Part shown: one piece after another, positions 3,705 through 13,914 of the stretch | How positions within the stretch are numbered: position 1 is the first letter of the stretch | Layout of the letters: every line of letters begins with the position of its first letter | From: Vicinamibacteria bacterium | GTDB taxonomy: Bacteria > Acidobacteriota > Vicinamibacteria > Fen-336 > JAGNNV01 | Reading direction: 5' to 3' | Length of the DNA: 59,439 bases | Assembly (NCBI GenBank): GCA_039932395.1 | Contig: JBDTQB010000001.1 | Coordinates: 1 to 59,439 of the forward strand | The notes under the pieces: generated by a model | The model's database searches: none | The model's input: the letters and a program-made list of their open reading frames with translations, nothing else | What the model was told of the DNA's origin: nothing | Translations under genes and position numbers: made by a program

Positions 3705-4091
3705 CTACCAAGTGGGATGCATCGGCGTTGGTGTGGGAACGGGCTTGCCAGGCGCGGTCGGCGTCATGGTCGGGACGGGGGCGACGGTCGGCAACGCCCC
3801 GGGGGTCGGCACGACCCTGGGTGGAGGCGGCGTGCGTGGAGTGGGAATCTGTTTCGGCGTCGGAGCGACGGTGGCCGTAGGAACGGCGCCCGGCGTGGGG
3901 ACGATTCTTGGCGTTGGCCCGGGAAGTCCCGGCGTCGGAACGCGTCGCGGGGTTGGGACCACCGGAGGCGGTGCAACGGTGGGAACGGGTGTGACTTGAG
4001 AGGCCGCAGCAGCCGCGTGCATCGACGGCGATGGGACGGCCAAGGCGCCGACGGCGACTGCGAGCGCGACCGCGCATTTCGTGCTGTTCAT
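3705..4091 (-). CDS. Secreted Pro/Thr-rich repeat protein (VPTP/TPxxVP repeats)
   Basis: Signal peptide MNSTKCAVALAVAVGALAVPSPSMHA-AAA, followed by almost pure P/T/V repeats. G/C-rich third codon positions favour the minus strand over the antisense GVGT ORF. Confidence 0.65.
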   Translation of the reverse strand: MNSTKCAVALAVAVGALAVPSPSMHAAAAASQVTPVPTVAPPPVVPTPRRVPTPGLPGPTPRIVPTPGAVPTATVAPTPKQIPTPRTPPPPRVVPTPGALPTVAPVPTMTPTAPGKPVPTPTPMHPTW

Positions 4092-4124
4092 GGATTTGTC
4101 CCTTGTGGTGCTGCGCTCAGCCCT

Positions 4125-4709
4125 CTACCTACGGGCGGTGGGCGACGGGGTGGGTGACGGGGTTGACGGCCTGGCCACCGGCGTCAGCGTTGGCAATGGC
4201 CCCGGCGTGGGTGCTGCGGGAAGATTTGGAACCACGGTCACCGTGGGCAGGGCCGACGGCGGGGCCAGCGTCGGAACCGCACCTGGAGTCGGAAGCGTTG
4301 GCAGCCTCTGGATGACGATAGGCGTGGGAAGGATCGATACGGTCGGGATCGTGTTTGGCGTCGGAACGACCTTGGGTGTCGGGACGGTCTGCGGTGTCGG
4401 CACGACTCGCGGTGTGGGGACAGTGTTGGGTGTCGGGACGGTGCGTGGCGTTGGAACCGTGGCGGGGGTTGGAACGACCCGAGGTGTTCCGACGGCATTC
4501 GGGGTTGGGACCGTGCGTGGCGTGGCGGCAACGCGAGGCGTCGAGGCCGGATTCGCCTGAAGGGCAGGGCCAACGGCTGCGCGCACGAAAGCCGATGTCA
4601 TGGCCGTGATCATTGCCGCGACGGCCAGAAGAATCCAGAACGCACGACTCAGGTGCACAGTTGTATCCGAGGGACGATCAGTCGTTGAACTCCGCAGGGT
4701 GTGGCTCAT
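4125..4709 (-). CDS. Membrane-anchored Pro/Thr-rich hexapeptide-repeat protein, paralogue of 3705..4091
   Basis: The ORF runs to 4760, but the ATG at 4709 is preceded by GGAG (ggagtgatcATG). It has one TM helix (FWILLAVAAMITAMTSAF) followed by about 11 TPxxVP units. The alternative start is 4760. Confidence 0.65.
   Translation of the reverse strand: MSHTLRSSTTDRPSDTTVHLSRAFWILLAVAAMITAMTSAFVRAAVGPALQANPASTPRVAATPRTVPTPNAVGTPRVVPTPATVPTPRTVPTPNTVPTPRVVPTPQTVPTPKVVPTPNTIPTVSILPTPIVIQRLPTLPTPGAVPTLAPPSALPTVTVVPNLPAAPTPGPLPTLTPVARPSTPSPTPSPTARR
4341..4541 (-). repeat. 18-bp-period tandem coding repeat (hexapeptide TP-x-x-VP, about 11 units)
   Basis: Protein string TPRVAATPRTVPTPNAVGTPRVVPTPATVPTPRTVPTPNTVPTPRVVPTPQTVPTPKVVPTPNTIPT. 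The corresponding DNA shows repeated ggtgtcgggacggt-type units. Confidence 0.8.
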
Positions 4710-4853
4710 GATCACTCCTTCCTCCGGACTCGATTCCGAAGACATCCGTAGCAGAAGCACGATCGGTGCCTTGCATCTCTCGATCCACCGAGCCGTCAGC
4801 TCGGCGACAAGTCTCTGGAAAAGAAATGTTTAAGCCAGTCAAGTCCCAGACCC

Positions 4854-6179
4854 TTGTTGAGGCGTTTGTACAAAAAACCAAACGGGGAGGATCCCTGCGC
4901 TATCTTTCGCGCCGTGAACCGACTGCTTGGCGTTTTCCTCGCGCTGCTCGTCACTGCGTGCCGGTCGTCGGGCCCGCTTCAGCCTGGTCCGATCGCCGCG
5001 GATCGCGCGGCGCGTCCCATCGTGATTCTCGTGTCGATCGATGGCTGGAGATACGACTACTTCGGTCGTTTCAATCCTCCGACTTTGACGGCCCTCGCGA
5101 AAGACGGCGTGCGCGCGGAAGGTTTGATCCCTCAGTTCCCTTCGAAGACTTTTCCCAACCACTACACGCTGGTGACCGGACTTCGTATTCCGCATCACGG
5201 GATCGTGTCGAACAACATGGTGGCGCCCGACCTGCCGGGCAAGTTCACGATGTCGGCGCGCGAAGTGACCAAGGACCCGCGCTGGTGGGGTGGCGAGCCG
5301 ATGTGGAACACCGTCGAGCGTCAGGGCGGAATCGCCGCGGCCATGTTCTGGCCCGGTTCGGAAACGGTCATCGGCGGACATCAGGCGACGTTCTGGAAAC
5401 CGTTCGACGACACCATGCCCGATCACGAGCGCGTCGCCCAGGTTCTTGATTGGCTGCGCCTTCCCGAAGAGAAGCGTCCGTCGTTTCTGACCCTCTATTT
5501 CAGCGATGTCGATCACGCTGGCCATGACGTGGGACCGGAGTCGACCACTTCCAAGGAATTGCCTGAAGCGATCGCCAAGGTCGATACCGCGTTGGGCGAA
5601 CTGGTGAAGGGCGTCGCCGCGATCGGACTGAACGGTCGCGTGAACTACGTCGTGGTCAGCGACCACGGCATGTCGCAGCTCAGTAAGCAGCGACTCATCA
5701 TGCTCGATGACTTCATCGATCCGTCCACCACGCAGATCCTTGACTCCGGGCCGGTGCTCGCGATTTCGCCCAAGGACGGCGACACGGAGAAGCTCTACGC
5801 GGCGCTCAAGGGCCGCAGTCCGCATATGGCGGTCTATCGGAATGCCGAGATTCCTGCGATCTACGGACTCGCGGGGCATCCGCGCGTGCCCGCGATCATG
5901 GCCATCGCGGACGACGGCTGGTACATCACGTCGAAGCTCGAGGTCGAGCGCTGGAAGCCCTCGGGGATGCTGGGCGAGGGCGGCGCGCATGGATATGACC
6001 CGCGCCTGAAGTCGATGCACGGCCTTTTCATTGCGTCGGGTCCAAAGGTTCGCAACGACGGCGCGGTGGTGAAGCCGTTCGAAAACATCCAGGTCTACGA
6101 CTTCCTGTGCGTCCTGCTTGGACTCCGGCCGGCGGCGAATGATGGCGATCCTTCGCTCACCAAGGGCTTTCTCCGTTAG
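4854..6179 (+). CDS. Ectonucleotide pyrophosphatase/phosphodiesterase (NPP, alkaline-phosphatase superfamily), probable lipoprotein
   Basis: VILVSIDGWRYDYF, FPSKTFPNHYTLVTGL, GGEPMWNT, FWPGSE, YFSDVDHAGHDVGP and VVSDHGM are NPP-family motifs. Lipobox-like LALLVTAC. An alternative GTG start lies at 4914. Confidence 0.85.
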   Translation: MLRRLYKKPNGEDPCAIFRAVNRLLGVFLALLVTACRSSGPLQPGPIAADRAARPIVILVSIDGWRYDYFGRFNPPTLTALAKDGVRAEGLIPQFPSKTFPNHYTLVTGLRIPHHGIVSNNMVAPDLPGKFTMSAREVTKDPRWWGGEPMWNTVERQGGIAAAMFWPGSETVIGGHQATFWKPFDDTMPDHERVAQVLDWLRLPEEKRPSFLTLYFSDVDHAGHDVGPESTTSKELPEAIAKVDTALGELVKGVAAIGLNGRVNYVVVSDHGMSQLSKQRLIMLDDFIDPSTTQILDSGPVLAISPKDGDTEKLYAALKGRSPHMAVYRNAEIPAIYGLAGHPRVPAIMAIADDGWYITSKLEVERWKPSGMLGEGGAHGYDPRLKSMHGLFIASGPKVRNDGAVVKPFENIQVYDFLCVLLGLRPAANDGDPSLTKGFLR

Positions 6180-6189
6180 GGTTCTTCCC

Positions 6190-7143
6190 ATGGAACCGCG
6201 CTACGTCGTTCACACCGTCTTCCGCGAAGGCGTTGAATTCTTTCTGCTGGAAGACGGCACGCGAGCGGCTGCGGCGAGCGCGCCCTCGCTCGGCAACAAC
6301 CTCTTTCTCTACTCGGCCGGATTGCCGGTCCTTGAGCCCATCGCTTTCGCTGACTTCCTCAAGAAGCCGACGAGCTTCGGGATTCCGCTGCTGTTTCCAT
6401 TCCCGAATCGCCTCCGCGACGGTGCGTTCACCTTCCAAGGCAAGCGCTATGAGGTGAATCCGCCCCGCCACGGTTTCGTGCGTGACAAGGCCTGGAGGGT
6501 GATCGACACGGGGGCTTCGGTCAGCGAAGGTGCCTGGATCCTGAGTGAAATCAAAGCCGAGGATTATCCGCTCGAGATCCTGAGTCAGTTCCCGTTTCCG
6601 TTCACGCTTCAGACGACGTATCGGTTGCGCGAGGCGGCGCTCGAGATCCACGTCGTTGCGGAGAACACGGGGCAGGGCGACATGCCGGTCGGTTTCGGCA
6701 TTCATCCCTACTTCCGCCGTCCGGGCCGGGGAAGTGTTGAAGTTCCCGCGCGAAAGAGATGGGAGTTGAGCGACTCGCTTCCCACCGGAACTCTGCTGGG
6801 TGTGGACGGCGCGTTTGATCTGAGACAGCCAAGGGACATCGCGACGCTCAGCCTCGACGACATCTACGCGGATGCCATCCCGGATGAAGACGGGCTCGTC
6901 CGTTGTCGCTTGCGTGATGAAGTGACGGGCGTACAGACAGTCGTCGAGTTCAGCGCCGCCGAGTTCCCCGACATCGTGGTCTACACGCCTCCAGCACCCC
7001 GGCCCGCCATCTGCATCGAGCCGAACTCATGCCCAACGGATGCCTTCAATCTTCACGAGCGCGGAGTGGATGCCGGCGTGCTCGTCCTGAAGCCAGGCGC
7101 GAAAGCCGAATGGAACGTTCGGATCTTCTCGGAGCCGCTCTAG
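6190..7143 (+). CDS. Aldose 1-epimerase (galactose mutarotase-like) family protein
   Basis: The ATG at 6190 (MEPRYVVHTVF...) lies just after the preceding stop. FGIPLLFPFPNRLRDG, GKRYEV, HGFVRDKAW and GFGIHPYF are typical of the aldose-epimerase fold. Confidence 0.8.
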   Translation: MEPRYVVHTVFREGVEFFLLEDGTRAAAASAPSLGNNLFLYSAGLPVLEPIAFADFLKKPTSFGIPLLFPFPNRLRDGAFTFQGKRYEVNPPRHGFVRDKAWRVIDTGASVSEGAWILSEIKAEDYPLEILSQFPFPFTLQTTYRLREAALEIHVVAENTGQGDMPVGFGIHPYFRRPGRGSVEVPARKRWELSDSLPTGTLLGVDGAFDLRQPRDIATLSLDDIYADAIPDEDGLVRCRLRDEVTGVQTVVEFSAAEFPDIVVYTPPAPRPAICIEPNSCPTDAFNLHERGVDAGVLVLKPGAKAEWNVRIFSEPL

Positions 7144-7190
7144 CCCTTCGACTGTGACGCCCACAGACTCCTGCTCAGGGACCACCCGGC

Positions 7191-7247
7191 CCCTATCAGT
7201 CTGGACTTACGCTGGGCCGCGCTGGATCAGGCGGATGGCGATCGAGC
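7191..7247. repeat. Left copy of a 57/56-bp direct repeat; an orphan duplicate of the rapA 3' end
   Basis: Aligns with 11145-11200 with 3 substitutions and one 1-nt indel (counted by hand). On the minus strand it reads ..IAIRLIQRGPA-TAA. Confidence 0.9.
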
Positions 7248-7311
7248 AACGGGGAAGACGCCGATTCCGATTGAGGATTGGCGAGAAGTCGCCGACAAAG
7301 GGTTGGACGCC

Positions 7312-7746
7312 TCAGGCGGAGGTTCGGCGATGCGGTCCCGGGCGGTCACGGAGAGCGTCAATAACCCGCACGTCTCGAAAAGACTTCAAGCGACGGTCGG
7401 CCGTGAGGTAGCCATCGACTTCATATTCAGCCGCGGTCGCGAGATGCAGAGCATCGGGCGATCTGAAGGGATACGTGGCGCGAATTTCAGCAGCTCGCCG
7501 GACGACCAGATCATCGAGATCGAGAATCAGAATTTCAGAAAGCGCGGCTTCCGTGCGTCGCTTCCGTTCGATGTCTTTCTTCTTGATCGGCCCAACCAAC
7601 ACTTCAAGGACGGTCAATCTCGACGTGACGAGGAGAGCACCCGGTTGTGTGGCGTGCCAGTCGAGCCACCTGCGAACTGGGTCTCGGAAACGGGGGCTGG
7701 CCGCGATGTTGTAGACGATGACGTTGGTATCGAGATAGAGAATCAT
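7312..7746 (-). CDS. vapC: PIN-domain ribonuclease toxin (VapC family), full length
   Basis: MILYLDTNVIVY.. N-terminus, ..S.L...E.. centre, DALHLATAAE and YLTADRRL C-terminal acidic positions. ATGA overlap with the upstream antitoxin ORF. Confidence 0.85.
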   Translation of the reverse strand: MILYLDTNVIVYNIAASPRFRDPVRRWLDWHATQPGALLVTSRLTVLEVLVGPIKKKDIERKRRTEAALSEILILDLDDLVVRRAAEIRATYPFRSPDALHLATAAEYEVDGYLTADRRLKSFRDVRVIDALRDRPGPHRRTSA

Positions 7747-8045
7747 CTATCCCAGTCGCCACGGACCTCATCGATTTCGCGGTCTATTTCTGCGGCGGAC
7801 ATGCTGCCCGGAGGCAGGGTGTCGAGGAGCGCCAAGAATTTCTTTGGATCTCCTCGCCCAGGCGTTCGAGCGAGCGCCGCTCTGATCCTGCGGGAGCGAA
7901 CGGGCTTGGCGATCGTAGCCGGGGATCCTGACTTGTACTTCCGAGTCGCGAGCGCTGGCATTGAGGAGTCCCTTCTACGCTTTGATGCTACTACCGCGTC
8001 AACGGACTCGAGAAGGATGACTGGTTCCGAGGGTTCCTTCATCAT
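7743..8045 (-). CDS. Antitoxin-like small protein coupled to vapC (module 1)
   Basis: Start taken at ATGATG (8045/8042). Its stop overlaps the vapC start (ATGA at 7743-7746). The C-terminus AAEIDREIDEVRGDWDR resembles the antitoxin at 8251..8469. The 122-aa form in the track would overlap the upstream stub. Confidence 0.65.
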   Translation of the reverse strand: MMKEPSEPVILLESVDAVVASKRRRDSSMPALATRKYKSGSPATIAKPVRSRRIRAALARTPGRGDPKKFLALLDTLPPGSMSAAEIDREIDEVRGDWDR

Positions 8046-8254
8046 TGAAGTCCCCACCCCAAACCCCTCCCACGAAGCGAACGGCCTGTCAGGATCGGCA
8101 TCACGAGGCATTCGGCGCGTGCGAGCTGGGACGCCAACAGGGTTCCGCCTGGGGTGTTCTCGGCTCGTTCTACCCAGCTGACGGCAGCGTCATGTTCCGC
8201 GTAATGCGCTTCGACGCAGAGTCTGAGGATGCTCGTATCGAGGTAGAGCTTCAC
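8042..8254 (-). pseudogene. Truncated PIN-domain toxin (N-terminal about 58 residues of a vapC paralogue plus a short unrelated tail)
   Basis: (GTG)KLYLDTSILRL...PGGTLLASQLARAECLVMPI aligns by eye with the N-terminal half of the intact VapC (ILYLDTNVI...PGALLVTSRLTVLEVLVGPI). It stops after 70 codons, so the C-terminal acidic residues are missing. Confidence 0.7.
8045..8070. repeat. 26-bp C-rich (minus-strand G-rich) direct repeat, copy 1
   Basis: ttgaagtccccaccccaaacccctcc versus ttgaaatctccaccccaaacccctcc at 8994-9019, 24 of 26 identical. Confidence 0.85.
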
Positions 8255-8469
8255 CGCTCCCAGGAGTCTCGCTCTTCCTTCAACTCTGCGGAGATCTCAG
8301 CGCCGGTGCGGGTGCCTTTGGGCATGTTGCGAATGTATTCCGACATGGACTTGCGTGGAGAGGCGGGGGCATATGCGACGACCTCGACTCGCTCGACTTG
8401 GGGAGGAAGGGGCGCGTCAAGATGGATGACTCCGTTCTCAACGTGTGCGGCGATTTTGAATGCGTCCAT
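8251..8469 (-). CDS. Antitoxin-like small protein (module 2)
   Basis: The ATG at 8469 is preceded by AGGAGG (caggaggtctgccATG). It reads MDAFKIAAHVENGVIHLD... The C-terminus GAEISAELKEERDSWER matches the module-1 antitoxin. GTGA overlap with the downstream PIN stub. Confidence 0.7.
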   Translation of the reverse strand: MDAFKIAAHVENGVIHLDAPLPPQVERVEVVAYAPASPRKSMSEYIRNMPKGTRTGAEISAELKEERDSWER

Positions 8470-8498
8470 GGCAGACCTCCTGAACGGAACCGATGCTA

Positions 8499-8681
8499 CT
8501 ACGCGCGCCGCTTCGAGAAGGAGGGAGAGTTTCGTCTTCTCTCGATCAGAAAGAGCTCTGGTTCCACGAGGCTGATTCGATCTTCTCTGTAGAGGTAGAG
8601 AAGGTGATTGGCCTTTTCGTTGCCCGTTGTCTCGCGAACAAACCATTTGACCGCGACGCTCGCATCGATGACGAATCGCAA
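8499..8681 (-). pseudogene. Truncated PIN-domain toxin (N-terminal about 47 residues, then an out-of-family tail)
   Basis: TTG start 3 nt after the upstream antitoxin stop. RFVIDASVAVKWF...LVEPELFLIE is a classical VapC N-terminus. The ORF ends after 60 codons, immediately before the SD of the next antitoxin. Confidence 0.65.
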
Positions 8682-8684
8682 GCT

Positions 8685-8915
8685 CTACTCGACTCCGTCT
8701 CGCCATTCTCGGATCATGTCGGCGCTATCCGGAAGTTCTCCGTTGCGCTGGAAGATACGTTCTCGGCGCGCCGCCATGCGCTCCATCAACGAATCTCTTT
8801 TGACTGCGACGGTGGACGCCGAGCCCTTGGCGAGTTGCTCGATGTGGGACTCGATCTCGCGCTGCTGCTGAGGCGTGAGGGACTTGATTCGTTCGATGAG
8901 TTCAGTGGTGCTCAT
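8685..8915 (-). CDS. Antitoxin-like small protein (module 3; addiction-module-component-like)
   Basis: 76 aa, MSTTELIERIKSLTPQQQREIESHIEQL.., with an AGGAG SD (caggagtccatATG). It sits directly upstream of the PIN stub in the usual antitoxin-toxin order. Confidence 0.6.
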   Translation of the reverse strand: MSTTELIERIKSLTPQQQREIESHIEQLAKGSASTVAVKRDSLMERMAARRERIFQRNGELPDSADMIREWRDGVE

Positions 8916-8993
8916 ATGGACTCCTGATAGCGCCCGATGGTACTAGTCAAGCGCCTTCAACAAGGAAGGCCGAATCCGTCGCGTCGCTCTTCC

Positions 8994-9019
8994 TTGAAAT
9001 CTCCACCCCAAACCCCTCC
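8994..9019. repeat. 26-bp C-rich direct repeat, copy 2
   Basis: See 8045-8070. The two copies bracket exactly the two decayed TA modules. Confidence 0.85.
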
Positions 9020-9341
9020 AGGTTTCACCTACTGAGTTCAATGTCGACTTCACCGCGAACGCCCTGATATTGCCTGTCGTGCGGATCAGGCGAGTGGTTA
9101 CGGGTTTCGTGTCGGACGCTCAATGCGTCTCAAATCCCGTCGAGTGGGCCATGCGCGATTCCACCGGGCGGAGCCATGGCAGACTACTCTGACAAAGCGG
9201 ACGATAGGTTCGAGACTTTTGGCGACGGCCTTACGATCGCAGGATGGATTCCCGCCAATGCGTTGGGCTCGAAGACGGGGGGCGGCGGCACCGACGGCAG
9301 CGTATCGAGATGGGCAAGTACACCGGAGCGGATCACGGAGC

Positions 9342-9674
9342 ATGAAACAAATCTGGGGAACAAATGCGCCATCCGATGGAACGCGCGCCAGGCGGACGCG
9401 TTACTGGGGTGAATTGGCGAGCTGGTATCCGGCGCTATCGTACGCCGCTGGGGTTGCGCCGGTGGCAAGCTTTAGTGCGCCAGATGCTCAGCTGTCTGCT
9501 GAGATGTTTGGCCTCCCCGTCCTCGGACGCAACATCGACTTCAGTTTGATCGGCGGGACTTCGGACTTCAGCGTCAGCGAGGGCTTTTTTTCCTCGCATT
9601 CGTACCTGAACGCCCGCAAGTTCTCGACGGTCTGGAAGGGCTTCCGGGCGATGCAACAGTTGTTCTCCTACTAG
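9342..9674 (+). CDS. Hypothetical protein (orphan), possibly co-transcribed with the HEAT-repeat membrane protein
   Basis: The ATG is preceded by GGAGC. The 3' half has G/C-rich third positions (FGLPVLGRNIDFSLIGGTSDFSVSEGFF..). Its stop lies 1 nt before the GTG of the next gene. I recognise no family. Confidence 0.3.
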   Translation: MKQIWGTNAPSDGTRARRTRYWGELASWYPALSYAAGVAPVASFSAPDAQLSAEMFGLPVLGRNIDFSLIGGTSDFSVSEGFFSSHSYLNARKFSTVWKGFRAMQQLFSY

Positions 9675-9675
9675 G

Positions 9676-11100
9676 GTGGGGCCTGCGGGTTTCTTCGTTG
9701 CTGCGGTGCTGGCGGCAGGGCCAGTTGAGGAGGCAGTAACGCGCCTTCGCGAGCCGCCCATGAGAGAGGCGGCGATGGCGGATCTTGTGCGAATGGGCCC
9801 GCCCATTGCCCTTGACCTTGTGAAGGCAGCCCAAGGAGCCTTGTTGCCCGTACAAGCAGCGATCGTGGACGTTCTTGTTCAGATTGGGCCGGCGGGACTG
9901 CCGGAGCTTTCTCGGTGCTCAGTTCCAATGTTTCGAGATGAATTCTCGGAGTGCGATTTCGCGGTTCGAGCGGTGCAGCGAATGGGGGACGAGGCTTTGA
10001 CTGTTTTGGAGGCGTGGGCGCCGGAGCCAAGCTCTGCGCGGGCCTCTTTTGCCTTGCACTGCCTTCGCTCGTTTGGGCCGAAGCGCTCGCTTTCTGTATT
10101 GGAGCGGCTAACACGGCATCCGGACGAGAGGGTACGGCGGGACGCCTTCGGCATCATCGCTTCCTGGAACGATCCGATGATTGGTGACGTATTGGTGAAA
10201 GGGTTAGAGGACAGGGATGGGCCTATTGTGTCGAAGGCCCTGACGGGATTGAGAAAGATTCGCGACAGGCGCCTGATTCCCGTGGCGCTAACACTCGCCG
10301 CCGATGATCGAAATGGAGGTCTTCAAGAGGACGCTGTAGCGGGTCTTGGAGTGTTTTTCGGTCGTGAGTTACTCCAACCTATCCTAAGAGTTGCCAGACA
10401 AGCTCCTGATGTTGGCGCTCGGCGGACGGGGGTGAGCACACTTGTTTGGGTGAAGGATTCAATCGCGAATCGACTGGGCCAGCGTTATGACGTGATCACA
10501 GTCGACCCCGGCGCTCAGCCCGGAATATGGATGCGGCATATGGTGCAGTTGGGCGGAACGGCGCTGTTCGTGTTTGTGTGCCTTCGGCTCGCGGCCTTGA
10601 TTCCGCTGGGAGTGTTAGTAAGCGGTTGCGTGCTTACCTCGGCCGGGTACTTTTGGGGGAACGTGATCACAAAGATCAACGGATCGGTGGAGCGCGAATT
10701 GTTGTTGTTGATGATTCCATGCGTGTGGCTCGTTGCGCGGATTCTTGGGGTGAAGTTATTGGGCCTAGCCGACCTCGCGATGCCGTTTGTCCTGGCAATG
10801 GGTGGCGGCTTGGTTGCATCCATTTGCGTGTTCGCGCTCGGGCAATTCAGAGCGATCAATGCCGTATTGTTATCGCAGTATGGCTGGGTTCTGGTCTATA
10901 CGGGATTGCTGTTCGGTGCGGCCATAGGATTCAGGCGATTTCTGTTTCGGCAAGAGGCGAAGAAGGTTGTGGCCCTGGAGCACAACGTGAAGTTCACACG
11001 CCTCGCAACTGTTGGCTGTGTAGCTTTTTACGCGGGCTATGTCTTCGGCTGGTGGAGGCTGTGGGACTACTCGTCGGACGCATTCCGGTGCCTGCTGTGA
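9676..11100 (+). CDS. HEAT-repeat domain protein with a C-terminal polytopic membrane domain
   Basis: The N-terminal half has HEAT-like units (LTRHPDERVRRDAFGIIAS, LEDRDGPIVSKALTGLRKIRDRRLIPVAL, DDRNGGLQEDAVAGLG). The C-terminal roughly 190 aa form about 6 hydrophobic helices. GTG start. Confidence 0.6.
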   Translation: MGPAGFFVAAVLAAGPVEEAVTRLREPPMREAAMADLVRMGPPIALDLVKAAQGALLPVQAAIVDVLVQIGPAGLPELSRCSVPMFRDEFSECDFAVRAVQRMGDEALTVLEAWAPEPSSARASFALHCLRSFGPKRSLSVLERLTRHPDERVRRDAFGIIASWNDPMIGDVLVKGLEDRDGPIVSKALTGLRKIRDRRLIPVALTLAADDRNGGLQEDAVAGLGVFFGRELLQPILRVARQAPDVGARRTGVSTLVWVKDSIANRLGQRYDVITVDPGAQPGIWMRHMVQLGGTALFVFVCLRLAALIPLGVLVSGCVLTSAGYFWGNVITKINGSVERELLLLMIPCVWLVARILGVKLLGLADLAMPFVLAMGGGLVASICVFALGQFRAINAVLLSQYGWVLVYTGLLFGAAIGFRRFLFRQEAKKVVALEHNVKFTRLATVGCVAFYAGYVFGWWRLWDYSSDAFRCLL

Positions 11101-11144
11101 CGCGACCAGCGACTCGGCCCGCAGCGCGTTTGTCCCGGTCCGGT

Positions 11145-11200
11145 CCCTATCAGTCTGGACCTACGCCGGGCCGCGCTGGATGAGGCGGATGGCGTCGAGC
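11145..11200. repeat. Right copy of the direct repeat; it forms the functional 3' end of rapA
   Basis: Contains the rapA stop (TAG, 11161-11163) and the last 13 codons (..LDAIRLIQRGPA). Confidence 0.9.
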
Positions 11201-13914
11201 CGCAGTCGCGCGGCGGAGAGATGTTCGTCGAGCGCCGTCTTCTGCTCGATCAGCAGGTCAACCTCTTCGGGCCGAACGCTGCGATTGACCTTCTGAAGAT
11301 CGCGCAGACGCTGGATCTCCTGATCGAGTTGGTCCGCCATGGTCTTCCTGGCCTGGAGGACCAGCGGCGGCACGCGGCGATCGGCGATCGACTGGGCCTT
11401 GGCGATCAGCGAGGGCAGAAGCTCTTCACGGACTTCCGGCCGCTGCAGGATGGACGTATCGCCGCGTCGCAGCAACGGCGTCATCATCGCGGTGGTGATC
11501 GCTGTACTCGCATCTCCACCCCGATGATCGAGCATGACGCGGATCGGCGTGGGCGGCAGGAAGCGATCGATATGAAGGTGAAGCGGGGCCACGCATTCCA
11601 GAACGTAGACCGCTTCCACGTACAGCGCGGAGGTCCTGCTGTCGGGCCATTTGGCGAAACTGCTGTTGCCATTCTGAGAGCCCAGGACGAGGTCAATCGC
11701 GTTCGTCACAAGCGGATGATCCCAGGTCAGAAACTGAAGATCCTCACGTGACAAGGCTTTCGTGCGATCGGCCGTCACGGTAAGTCCGTCCGCGGGAAGG
11801 CCGGGGAAGGTGTCCGCGAGAACGCCGGCCGAACCTAGCTGGTAGGTCCGCGGCGCGATTTCCTCCACCTGGATGGTGAAGTGATCGAACGCCGCGATCA
11901 TGAAAGCGTCGAGCGACTGATCCTGATCGCGATCCTTGATGTCCTCAACCAAGTGCGCCGCGACTTCGGGGCGGAAGGAGTTCAGCTCAAGCAAGCGATC
12001 GCGCCCGGTTTCCAGGCGACTGCGCAACGCCTCACCCGCGGAACGCGTTTCGGAGATCAACGTCTCGATGGCCGCGCGCGCGTCGGCATCCGAATCGGGG
12101 AAGGCGCGCGCCAGATCTCGCACGCGATCGCCAAACAGGTCGAGCAGCTCATTGCCGCTGTTGAGATTCTTCTCGAACGAGTTGAGGCCCTCGTTGAACC
12201 AGCGCGCCAGAACCTCCTGCGGACTTCCCGGCACGAAGGGAACGTGGACGTGAATCTCAGAAGTCTGCCCGATGCGATCAAGCCGGCCGATGCGCTGTTC
12301 GATCAGTTCGGGATCGAGCGGCAGATCGAACATCACCAGGTGATGGGAGAACTGGAAGTTCCGGCCCTCGCTGCCGATCTCCGAGCAAATCAGCAGACGC
12401 GCCCCACCCTCTTCCGCGAAGTAGGCCGCTTGTCGATCGCGTTGGACCAGCGTTAGCCCTTCATGAAACATCCCCATCCTGATCTTGATGAGATCGCGCA
12501 TCGCCGCTTCGATCGCTTCCACCTTCTCGCGCGTGCGGCAGATCAGCAGCACTTTCGACTTCTTGTGGGAACGCAGCAGGCTGATCAGCCAGGGAATCCG
12601 CGGGTCGGCGGTGAAGTCCGGCTCGAAGATCGATTCCTTCACCGGCTTGATGTCCGACTCGAATTCGTCGCGCACCCGTTCGAGCAGCGTGCCTTTGTCG
12701 CCTTCAAATGTGAGGGGAACAAGATGAGCGACGCGATTCGGAAATCCCGTGATGGTGGCGCGTGTGTTGCGGAACATCACGCGGCCGGTGCCGTGCTGAT
12801 CCAGCAGGTCGGCGAGCGCTTTGCGATCGGTCAGCGCGGCCGCTTGCTTCGCGACCTCGCGGTACGCCTCCGTCTCTCGCGCGAACTCGGCCAGATCGTG
12901 GAAACGCGCGGGGTCGAGCAGGCGCAGACGCGCGAAGTGGCTGGCGATACCGAGTTGCTCGGGTGTCGCGGTGAGAAGCAGCAAACCGGGAGAGGATTTG
13001 CTGAGCGCCTCGACCACCGTGTATTCCGGGCTGGCCTTCTCGGGCGTCCAGCCGAGATGATGCGCTTCATCCACCACGACCACATCCCAGCCAGCATCTA
13101 CGGCCTGTTTAACGCGGTGGGGGCGCTGAGTGAACAGGTTGATGCTGGCGAGCACCAGCTGATCTTCGAGGAAGGGATTGGCGCCGGGATTGGCCGCTTC
13201 AATCGACGCGCAGCGCTTCTCGTTGTAGATGCGGAACCAATGATTGAAGCGACGCAGCATCTCCACCAGCCACTGATGAACCAGCGAGCCCGGAACGAGC
13301 AGCAGAACACGATGGGCGCGGCCGGTCATCAGGAGACGGTGAACCACGAGACAGGCCTCGATGGTCTTGCCCAGGCCCACTTCATCGGCAAGCAGGACGC
13401 GGGGGACCAGTCGGCTCGATGTCTCCGACGCGATGTAGAGCTGGTGTGGAATCAGGTCGATCCGGCCACCCACGAAACCACGGACCCGGGATCGACGCTG
13501 CCGATACTGAAGATCCAGCGCGGCAACTCGCAGATCAAAGACATCCGGCGCGTCCGTCTGTCCGACCAGGAGACGCTCCTCGGGCTTGTTGAAACTGATC
13601 GCGTCGCTCAGGTCGCGCTCGCTGATCTCGACGACCGCGCCGTCACGAGAGCCTTGGTAGTGGAAGAGACCTTCCCGCTCGACCACTGCGGTGATGCGCA
13701 GCGACGCGTTCGCGCGATCTTTGATGGTGTCGCCTGCGTGAAAGCGCACGCGTCGCAGAGGCGCGTTGTCACGAGCGTACTCTCGGGTCTCTCCGCTCGC
13801 GGGGAAAATCAGCTTCACCCGCTGCGGGTCAGCGCTCTGGATGGAGCCGAGCCCGAGTTCTGGTTCGGAGTCGCTGATCCAGCGCTGGCCGGGATGAAAG
13901 AGAGAGTCGGCCAA
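11161..13914 (-). CDS. rapA: RNA polymerase-associated SNF2-family ATPase RapA (HepA)
   Basis: Collinear by eye with E. coli RapA: GQRWISDSEPELGLGS, LIPHQL, VLLADEVGLGKTIEA, QWLVEMLRRFN, VVVDEAHHL, LLLTATPEQLG, HFARLRLLDP, LLCSEIGSEGRNFQF, QRIGRLDRIGQ, FLPPTPIRV. Confidence 0.95.
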   Translation of the reverse strand: MADSLFHPGQRWISDSEPELGLGSIQSADPQRVKLIFPASGETREYARDNAPLRRVRFHAGDTIKDRANASLRITAVVEREGLFHYQGSRDGAVVEISERDLSDAISFNKPEERLLVGQTDAPDVFDLRVAALDLQYRQRRSRVRGFVGGRIDLIPHQLYIASETSSRLVPRVLLADEVGLGKTIEACLVVHRLLMTGRAHRVLLLVPGSLVHQWLVEMLRRFNHWFRIYNEKRCASIEAANPGANPFLEDQLVLASINLFTQRPHRVKQAVDAGWDVVVVDEAHHLGWTPEKASPEYTVVEALSKSSPGLLLLTATPEQLGIASHFARLRLLDPARFHDLAEFARETEAYREVAKQAAALTDRKALADLLDQHGTGRVMFRNTRATITGFPNRVAHLVPLTFEGDKGTLLERVRDEFESDIKPVKESIFEPDFTADPRIPWLISLLRSHKKSKVLLICRTREKVEAIEAAMRDLIKIRMGMFHEGLTLVQRDRQAAYFAEEGGARLLICSEIGSEGRNFQFSHHLVMFDLPLDPELIEQRIGRLDRIGQTSEIHVHVPFVPGSPQEVLARWFNEGLNSFEKNLNSGNELLDLFGDRVRDLARAFPDSDADARAAIETLISETRSAGEALRSRLETGRDRLLELNSFRPEVAAHLVEDIKDRDQDQSLDAFMIAAFDHFTIQVEEIAPRTYQLGSAGVLADTFPGLPADGLTVTADRTKALSREDLQFLTWDHPLVTNAIDLVLGSQNGNSSFAKWPDSRTSALYVEAVYVLECVAPLHLHIDRFLPPTPIRVMLDHRGGDASTAITTAMMTPLLRRGDTSILQRPEVREELLPSLIAKAQSIADRRVPPLVLQARKTMADQLDQEIQRLRDLQKVNRSVRPEEVDLLIEQKTALDEHLSAARLRLDAIRLIQRGPA

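Follow-up and report, generated by a model that had tools for sequence, protein, structure and literature searches.

A decayed islet of foreign DNA between two copies of the rapA 3' end in a Vicinamibacteria genome

We analysed a 59,439-nt stretch of DNA from a Vicinamibacteria bacterium (contig JBDTQB010000001.1, positions 1 to 59,439; hereafter the window), in which the 3' end of rapA, the gene of an RNA polymerase-associated SNF2 ATPase, is present twice. One copy terminates the intact gene, and the other lies beside the convergent aldose 1-epimerase gene. We found that the 3.9 kb between the two copies (about 7248-11139), here called the islet, is an insertion of decayed DNA of foreign composition. 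The best explanation, to which we give a probability of about 0.6, is that the islet is the remnant of a foreign element that entered the chromosome as a circle, by a Campbell-type insertion at the end of rapA. Roughly three quarters of that probability would fall on an integrase-mediated event.

The direct repeat had been described in an earlier note made from the letters alone, and both reading and alignment of the two stretches showed it to be present where the note placed it. Its ungapped part (repeat family D5; 7186-7240 against 11140-11194) is identical at 51 of 55 positions (93%). With one indel, an extra T at about 7241 on the proximal edge, the repeat extends to about 61 nt (7186-7247 against 11140-11200), and a short microhomology, GCTCGA, lies at the same edge. 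The count of three substitutions and one indel given in the note is right for the 57 nt that it used; the whole repeat starts 5 nt further left, at 7186 and 11140, and has four substitutions (CTC/CTG, CCG/CCA, TAG/TAA and one A/G after the stop codon) besides the 1-nt indel. The longest exact run common to both copies is 16 nt. Read in the sense of rapA, the repeat opens with the final 10-12 codons (..AIRLIQRGPA), continues through the stop codon and closes with a non-coding tail of 21 nt, 20 of them identical between the copies. The plus-strand open reading frames (ORFs) that span the copies both encode the string LSVWTYAGPRW, as had been noticed.

The right copy is indeed the true end of rapA: the ORF terminates ..LDAIRLIQRGPA-TAG, and its product matches RapA_C (1.9e-114), Tudor_1_RapA together with a second Tudor domain, SNF2-rel_dom and Helicase_C in Pfam. 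The left copy is orphaned, starting 43 nt past the stop codon of the aldose 1-epimerase gene, and on the minus strand it still reads ..IAIRLIQRGPA-TAA. From stop codon to stop codon, the orphan copy and the epimerase gene are 63 nt apart, which is a natural convergent spacing. The epimerase gene is a conserved convergent neighbour of rapA, with orthologues near rapA in five relatives (L081, L012, L018, L095 and L097). The order is therefore an intact gene end, foreign DNA, and the same end displaced to its natural distance from the convergent neighbour. A circle with a mimic of the rapA end would produce such a topology by a single reciprocal crossover with the chromosome, which leads to the Campbell-type reading.

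In the closest relative found, whose RapA is 78% identical (P0002, from a large protein collection) and whose DNA is about 75% identical (contig L081), rapA and the aldose epimerase gene are directly convergent, 181 nt apart, with a single rapA end. At the level of gene order this is the empty site that the earlier note had proposed to look for. The rapA end of this relative matches the orphan copy at 88% over 34 nt and the functional copy at 92% over 38 nt. In more distant Vicinamibacteria relatives, the neighbourhood of a phosphodiesterase (NPP) gene, the epimerase gene and rapA is conserved with small variations. A macro-domain gene lies between rapA and the epimerase gene in four of them (L012, L018, L095 and L097); it follows rapA directly in L090, a contig that stops before a further gene can be identified. 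The NPP gene comes directly after rapA in L016 and L098, and three hypothetical genes lie downstream of rapA in L087 and L089. None of these relatives contains the islet's content, and no recombinase was seen downstream of rapA in these nine. The interval just after rapA is plastic among Vicinamibacteria relatives, even without recognisable mobile elements. As an observation on L081 itself, 165 of the 181 nt between its rapA and epimerase stop codons are taken up by an insert (4863-5027) with 46-nt terminal inverted repeats (89% complementary) and CTAG at both ends; it looks like a miniature inverted-repeat transposable element or a large hairpin.

The composition of the islet also sets it apart from the rest of the window. 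Its GC content is 0.588, against 0.624 +/- 0.011 for 222 sliding windows of the same size, and its tetranucleotide distance is 0.0191, against 0.0130 +/- 0.0018. On both measures the islet is the most extreme stretch, with the lowest GC and the largest distance, and 0 of the 222 sliding windows lie beyond it; the compositional deviation for which the note had suggested a check is thus real. The GC content at third codon positions is 0.63-0.73 in the islet genes and 0.74-0.78 in the flanking genes. The interior holds no sequence derived from rapA.

These results bear on the idea that no insertion took place and that chance, a dispersed intergenic repeat, a leftover of tandem duplication or an assembly artefact accounts for the orphan copy, an idea that we regard as hardly credible. 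Chance is excluded: a 50-nt degenerate pattern with at most 3 mismatches finds exactly two sites in the window, both of them the repeat copies, and 0 matches in 100 dinucleotide-preserving shuffles. The repeat is not dispersed either: beyond its two copies in the window, it was absent from the 170 loci fetched, from viral contigs and from metagenome contigs. Tandem duplication is opposed by the foreign composition of the interior and its lack of rapA-derived sequence. The window is a metagenome-assembled contig whose read support could not be inspected, which speaks for an artefact; a longest exact run of 16 nt, however, is too short to mis-join contigs at the usual k-mer sizes. Neither outcome that the note had named as contrary to its proposal, a dispersed repeat or a shared gene order with no empty site and no compositional deviation, was what we found.

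Two further candidates concerning the repeat were rejected. When either copy was compared with the islet interior by Smith-Waterman alignment on both strands, no third copy was found (scores 20-24; shuffled null 21.5 +/- 2.5). A 15-nt match at 9083-9097 lies within that null, and a third internal attachment-site (att) copy, as would follow from accretion of two elements, was dismissed. A terminator or structured RNA was dismissed as well: the repeat folds no better than shuffles (z -0.45 to -0.9) and contains no terminator-like site.

The note had also argued that the copies diverged under coding constraint. All three coding differences do fall on third codon positions and are silent or exchange one stop codon for another, but the argument is weak and suggestive only. 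For three events, P is 0.037 if the differences are random and about 0.125 if one copy is selected and the other free. The peptide AIRLIQRGP is conserved across phyla, and even L081 shares about 90% identity with the coding part. Each copy is about as similar to L081 (88-92%) as the copies are to each other. The specific tie between the copies is the nearly identical non-coding tail, which has no counterpart in L081.

The islet is also visibly decayed. What had been taken for an orphan ORF is instead the frameshifted 3' remnant of a gene of about 1721 codons. It is 62% identical to the large protein over 105 aa (E 3e-42); in tblastn, the segments 9287-9361 and 9351-9665 align in different frames, and the similarity extends back to 9251. 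In a metagenome locus, L082, the gene of about 1721 codons stands directly upstream of the HEAT gene, and about 92% of it is missing from the window. Because this giant gene is truncated, at least about 4.7 kb must have been deleted from the interior. A deletion of that size leaves room for a lost integration module, which may once have been present.

The HEAT-repeat membrane protein recognised in the note was borne out by its Pfam match and by hydrophobic segments at 289-399. Its family is very rare, with 8 hits in 5.8 billion proteins, and the best match other than itself is 55% identical over 98% of the length. The protein of about 1721 aa has no Pfam match above threshold, with weak hints of Big_1 and DUF900. 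The two genes form a rare unit that we observed in the window (9251-11100), in L082 (4830-11422) and in L084 and L085. In the window, the large gene of the unit is a frameshifted stub and the HEAT gene is still intact.

The remaining cargo is an array of three head-to-tail modules on the minus strand, each made of a small ORF and a PIN-like ORF. Three PIN toxin-antitoxin modules had been counted here. One toxin, PIN1, is intact and passes the Pfam threshold, and the other two are N-terminal fragments. PIN1 thus has the PIN domain that defines a VapBC-type toxin. The PIN2 fragment is 35% identical to the N-terminus of PIN1 (E 1.7e-5 to 8.6e-5), whereas the PIN3 fragment is a putative PIN-like ORF, assigned by N-terminal resemblance only; neither matches a Pfam or NCBIfam model. 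Stop-start overlaps (ATGA and GTGA) are visible in modules 1 and 2. None of the three putative antitoxins exceeds any Pfam or NCBIfam threshold; the C-terminus of the putative PIN1 antitoxin is 32% identical to AT2.

Both toxin fragments are about 47-57 codons long and stop right at the start of the next module; the reading frame of PIN2 breaks where that module's upstream region starts, and the putative antitoxin ORFs are still open. The pattern of the array looks like serial toxin inactivation. The upstream regions of the three modules are homologous and promoter-like (TTGAC..GTAGTA[G/C]CATC). A 20-nt motif (repeat family D3) occurs in the array with 2 matches against 0.01 expected. The tandem modules and the motif led us to consider an integron-like cassette array, which we find unlikely: the motif is present only twice, the upstream regions are of an ordinary promoter-like kind, and there is no integron integrase. 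As a side observation, the PIN1 stop codon is in frame with the orphan rapA tail, with no start codon between them (7207-7314, minus strand), which is probably a coincidence, expected 1 time in 3. The features of the islet and its flanks are listed in Table 1.

Table 1. Features of the islet and of the adjoining host genes, in window coordinates
Feature	Coordinates	Strand	Basis or remark
Aldose 1-epimerase, host flank outside the islet	6118..7143	+	Pfam Aldose_epim 2.6e-31
Orphan rapA 3' end (attL-like)	7186..7247	-	21 nt post-stop, TAA, ..AIRLIQRGPA
PIN1, PIN-domain toxin, sole full-length toxin of the array	7312..7746	-	Pfam PIN 1.4e-17
Putative PIN1 antitoxin	7743..7961	-	Stop overlaps PIN1 start (ATGA); start uncertain, ORF open up to 8111
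20-nt motif GGAGGGGTTTGGGGTGGGGA / GGAGGGGTTTGGGGTGGRGA	8051..8070	-	Junction of PIN2 fragment and module 1
PIN2 fragment, truncated PIN-like toxin, about 54 codons	8093..8254	-	Resembles PIN1 N-terminus
AT2, putative antitoxin, 72 aa	8251..8469	-	Stop overlaps PIN2 start (GTGA)
PIN3 fragment, truncated putative PIN-like ORF	8499..8681	-	Toxin-like part ends ..PELFLIE, about codon 47
AT3, putative antitoxin, small ORF upstream of PIN3 fragment, 76 aa	8685..8915	-	Sub-threshold DUF2281 hint only
20-nt motif, second copy	9000..9019	-	Upstream of module 3
Pseudogene, frameshifted last ~140 codons of ~1721-codon gene	9251..9674	+	Protein match and tblastn
HEAT-repeat protein, intact, hydrophobic C-terminal half	9676..11100	+	Pfam HEAT_2 2.7e-11
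Functional rapA 3' end, second repeat copy (attR-like)	11140..11200	-	40 nt past HEAT gene stop
rapA, RNA polymerase-associated SNF2 ATPase, intact, 917 aa; target gene	11161..13914	-	Pfam

Under the Campbell-type explanation, a circle would have carried a copy of the rapA 3' end, from ~12 codons before the stop codon to ~21 nt past it, and would have recombined with the chromosomal rapA end. This would have left rapA intact with a replacement end, now the right copy, and displaced the original end to its place beside the epimerase gene, now the left copy. Deletions would then have taken most of the element, including the missing part of the 1721-codon gene and presumably the integration module, and two of the three toxin genes in the tandem PIN array would have become truncated. 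We infer a circular intermediate, catalysis not by RecA but by an integrase of the tyrosine or serine type, and an integrase gene that was once present.

RecA could have produced the same topology by a single crossover, if the circle was, for example, a plasmid or an excised fragment in which ~60-100 nt from the end of a rapA gene were present by chance; in that case the repeats would have played no part as att sites. The length of the shared segment matters here. Past the distal edge of the repeat, by 35 and 46 nt, there is a weak collinear similarity between 7151-7170 and 11094-11114 (CTGTGACGC..GACTC; p ~0.016), the right-hand part of which overlaps the HEAT stop codon. Because of this similarity, the duplicated or orthologous segment may be ~100 nt long rather than 61 nt, which would be long enough for RecA. 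The failure to find an integrase in the scans of the islet and the window also fits such a crossover, as does the lack of recurrent targeting of rapA ends among 156 relatives. Nevertheless, a 55-nt stretch that is 93% identical and never matches exactly over more than 16 nt makes a poor substrate for RecA, and, of duplications of this kind, only those that are old or whose copies have diverged are stable. Moreover, a foreign circle that carries exactly a gene end would be left unexplained. We consider a RecA crossover quite improbable.

Somewhat less improbable, though still unlikely, is homology-facilitated illegitimate recombination with a linear fragment, which would involve neither a circle nor an integrase. 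The fragment would have come from a close donor whose HEAT operon was convergent on its own rapA. Homologous exchange inside rapA on one side would have been combined with an illegitimate joint ~40 nt before the recipient's rapA stop codon, stranding the orphan copy. The copies differ in the way that diverged orthologues would, the weak similarity past the distal edge fits orthologous spacers downstream of rapA, and the short microhomology lies at the proximal edge. No search that we made found an integrase or a related mobile element, which suits this account too. On the other hand, the donor must have shared 20 of the 21 post-stop bases, yet the DNA that it would have delivered deviates more in composition than any other stretch of the window. 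We found no genome with the HEAT operon beside rapA. A mosaic rapA with a donor-derived 3' part was looked for and set aside: the sliding identity profile of rapA against three relatives has no break, although these relatives are too distant to be informative and give poor resolution. Finally, a joint within the last 40 nt of the gene would be a coincidence, whereas the att model predicts it.

Several results weigh against the Campbell-type insertion itself. The copies differ at 4 of 55 positions and by an indel, and copies so diverged may no longer work as recombination sites. The site is empty at gene-order level only, since L081, at about 75% DNA identity, shares none of the 21 post-stop bases. 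The pair of the giant gene and the HEAT gene is found in two other contexts, which look chromosomal and are away from rapA. In agreement with the earlier note, no integrase was found: a Pfam scan of the islet ORFs on both strands revealed no recombinase, and a tyrosine-recombinase motif scan of the whole window, a heuristic rather than a profile search, also found none.

The collections searched were equally silent on a parent element. Of the loci covered, 82 came from genomes or assemblies and 74 from metagenomes. In every one, the last 63 nt of rapA together with the next 30 nt served as query against as much as 10 kb of sequence further downstream, a reach too short to reveal larger elements. 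The window itself, used as a positive control, was recovered with E 3e-18. No second duplicated rapA end was found in the 156 relatives, where the only matches were 12-15-nt chance matches. None of them had an occupied rapA site with an integrase, as the earlier note had proposed to look for, or a related element within that reach. The post-stop part of the repeat, used as an att pattern, was absent from viral and metagenome collections, RapA C-termini were absent from viral contigs, and the islet had no blastn match in plasmid or phage collections.

Among these searches, a heuristic motif scan of the relatives gave one Xer-like gene, upstream of rapA at one locus, and nothing downstream of any rapA. 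We also rejected a hidden recombinase pseudogene, since the alternative-strand and intergenic ORFs of the islet have no Pfam match at all, and an origin from a phage or plasmid, on the viral-contig and blastn results just given. No transfer gene was detected in the islet by Pfam scan. The lineage is very thinly sampled, the nearest RapA being 78% identical, and to our knowledge the mobile elements of Acidobacteriota have barely been characterised. Of the proposal made in the earlier note, the insertion, the foreign composition, the decay and the lack of any recombinase are supported; a site-specific event, or one catalysed by an integrase, is unproven.

The arrangement has a familiar counterpart in icd of Escherichia coli, the integration site of e14 and phage 21. 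There the prophage supplies an alternative 3' end and the displaced icd fragment is left behind. As in the islet, the gene end exists in a functional and a displaced version that differ mostly at silent positions, and e14 is itself a defective remnant. Unlike the islet, the icd duplication is ~165 nt long, e14 keeps its integrase, and the phage origin is established.

A closer likeness is offered by cis-mobilizable elements (CIMEs), which are decayed integrative elements that have kept attL and attR and lost their integration and transfer genes, as described for the ICESt1/ICESt3 family at the fda 3' end (PMC5704250). By analogy, the islet resembles a CIME, with att-like repeats and cargo but no recombinase. 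Direct repeats bound it on both sides, and one of the two doubles as the working 3' terminus of a housekeeping gene; integration and transfer genes are lacking, and its accessory cargo includes toxin-antitoxin modules. In contrast to CIMEs, the islet has repeats that are 7% diverged, its host is a Vicinamibacteria metagenome-assembled genome and not a Firmicute, and no parent integrative and conjugative or integrative and mobilizable element (ICE or IME) with a cognate integrase for the rapA site was found in the collections searched.

Other integrative mobilizable elements and genomic islands are known at the 3' ends of protein-coding genes, for example SGI1 and MGIVchHai6 in trmE, Gisul2, ATE-1 and others at guaA, and IMEs in rplL, rpsI and rpmG (PMC5704250, Table 1). 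Like these elements, the islet targets the 3' end of a conserved housekeeping gene, which stays intact with an end supplied by one of the repeats; toxin-antitoxin cargo, which the islet also carries, is common among them. Those elements differ in encoding a tyrosine integrase at one end, where the islet encodes none, and rapA is not among the listed targets. In a literature search that was limited on this point, we found no report of rapA (hepA) as an integration site. Repeats of 55-61 nt that take in a housekeeping gene's end are a documented signature of integrative elements (PMC5704250).

Outside the islet, we observed an 18-nt periodic repeat with at least 10 copies at 3802-4511 of the window, where GC locally reaches 0.71. 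It corresponds to a Pro/Thr-rich repeat of the VPTP type in a minus-strand ORF at 4125-4760.

Integration at a gene end with duplication of that end, followed by decay to a remnant without an integrase, is an already known kind of feature (PMC5704250) and implies no new mechanism; what is unusual here is the target gene, rapA, only. The islet adds one well-delimited case of gene-end integration and subsequent decay from an under-studied soil phylum. It also corrects the annotation, turning an orphan ORF into a pseudogene remnant and two toxins into truncated ones. The repeat provides exact boundaries for the islet and a predicted empty-site sequence for Vicinamibacteria genomes, and it flags rapA as a possible attachment site. 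A bolder proposal, which we hold only tentatively and find rather doubtful, is that a so far undescribed family of Vicinamibacteria integrative elements uses the rapA 3' end as its attachment site, the islet being a CIME whose repeats a cognate integrase could recombine in trans. If this is true, the HEAT gene and the toxin-antitoxin cargo would be mobilised.

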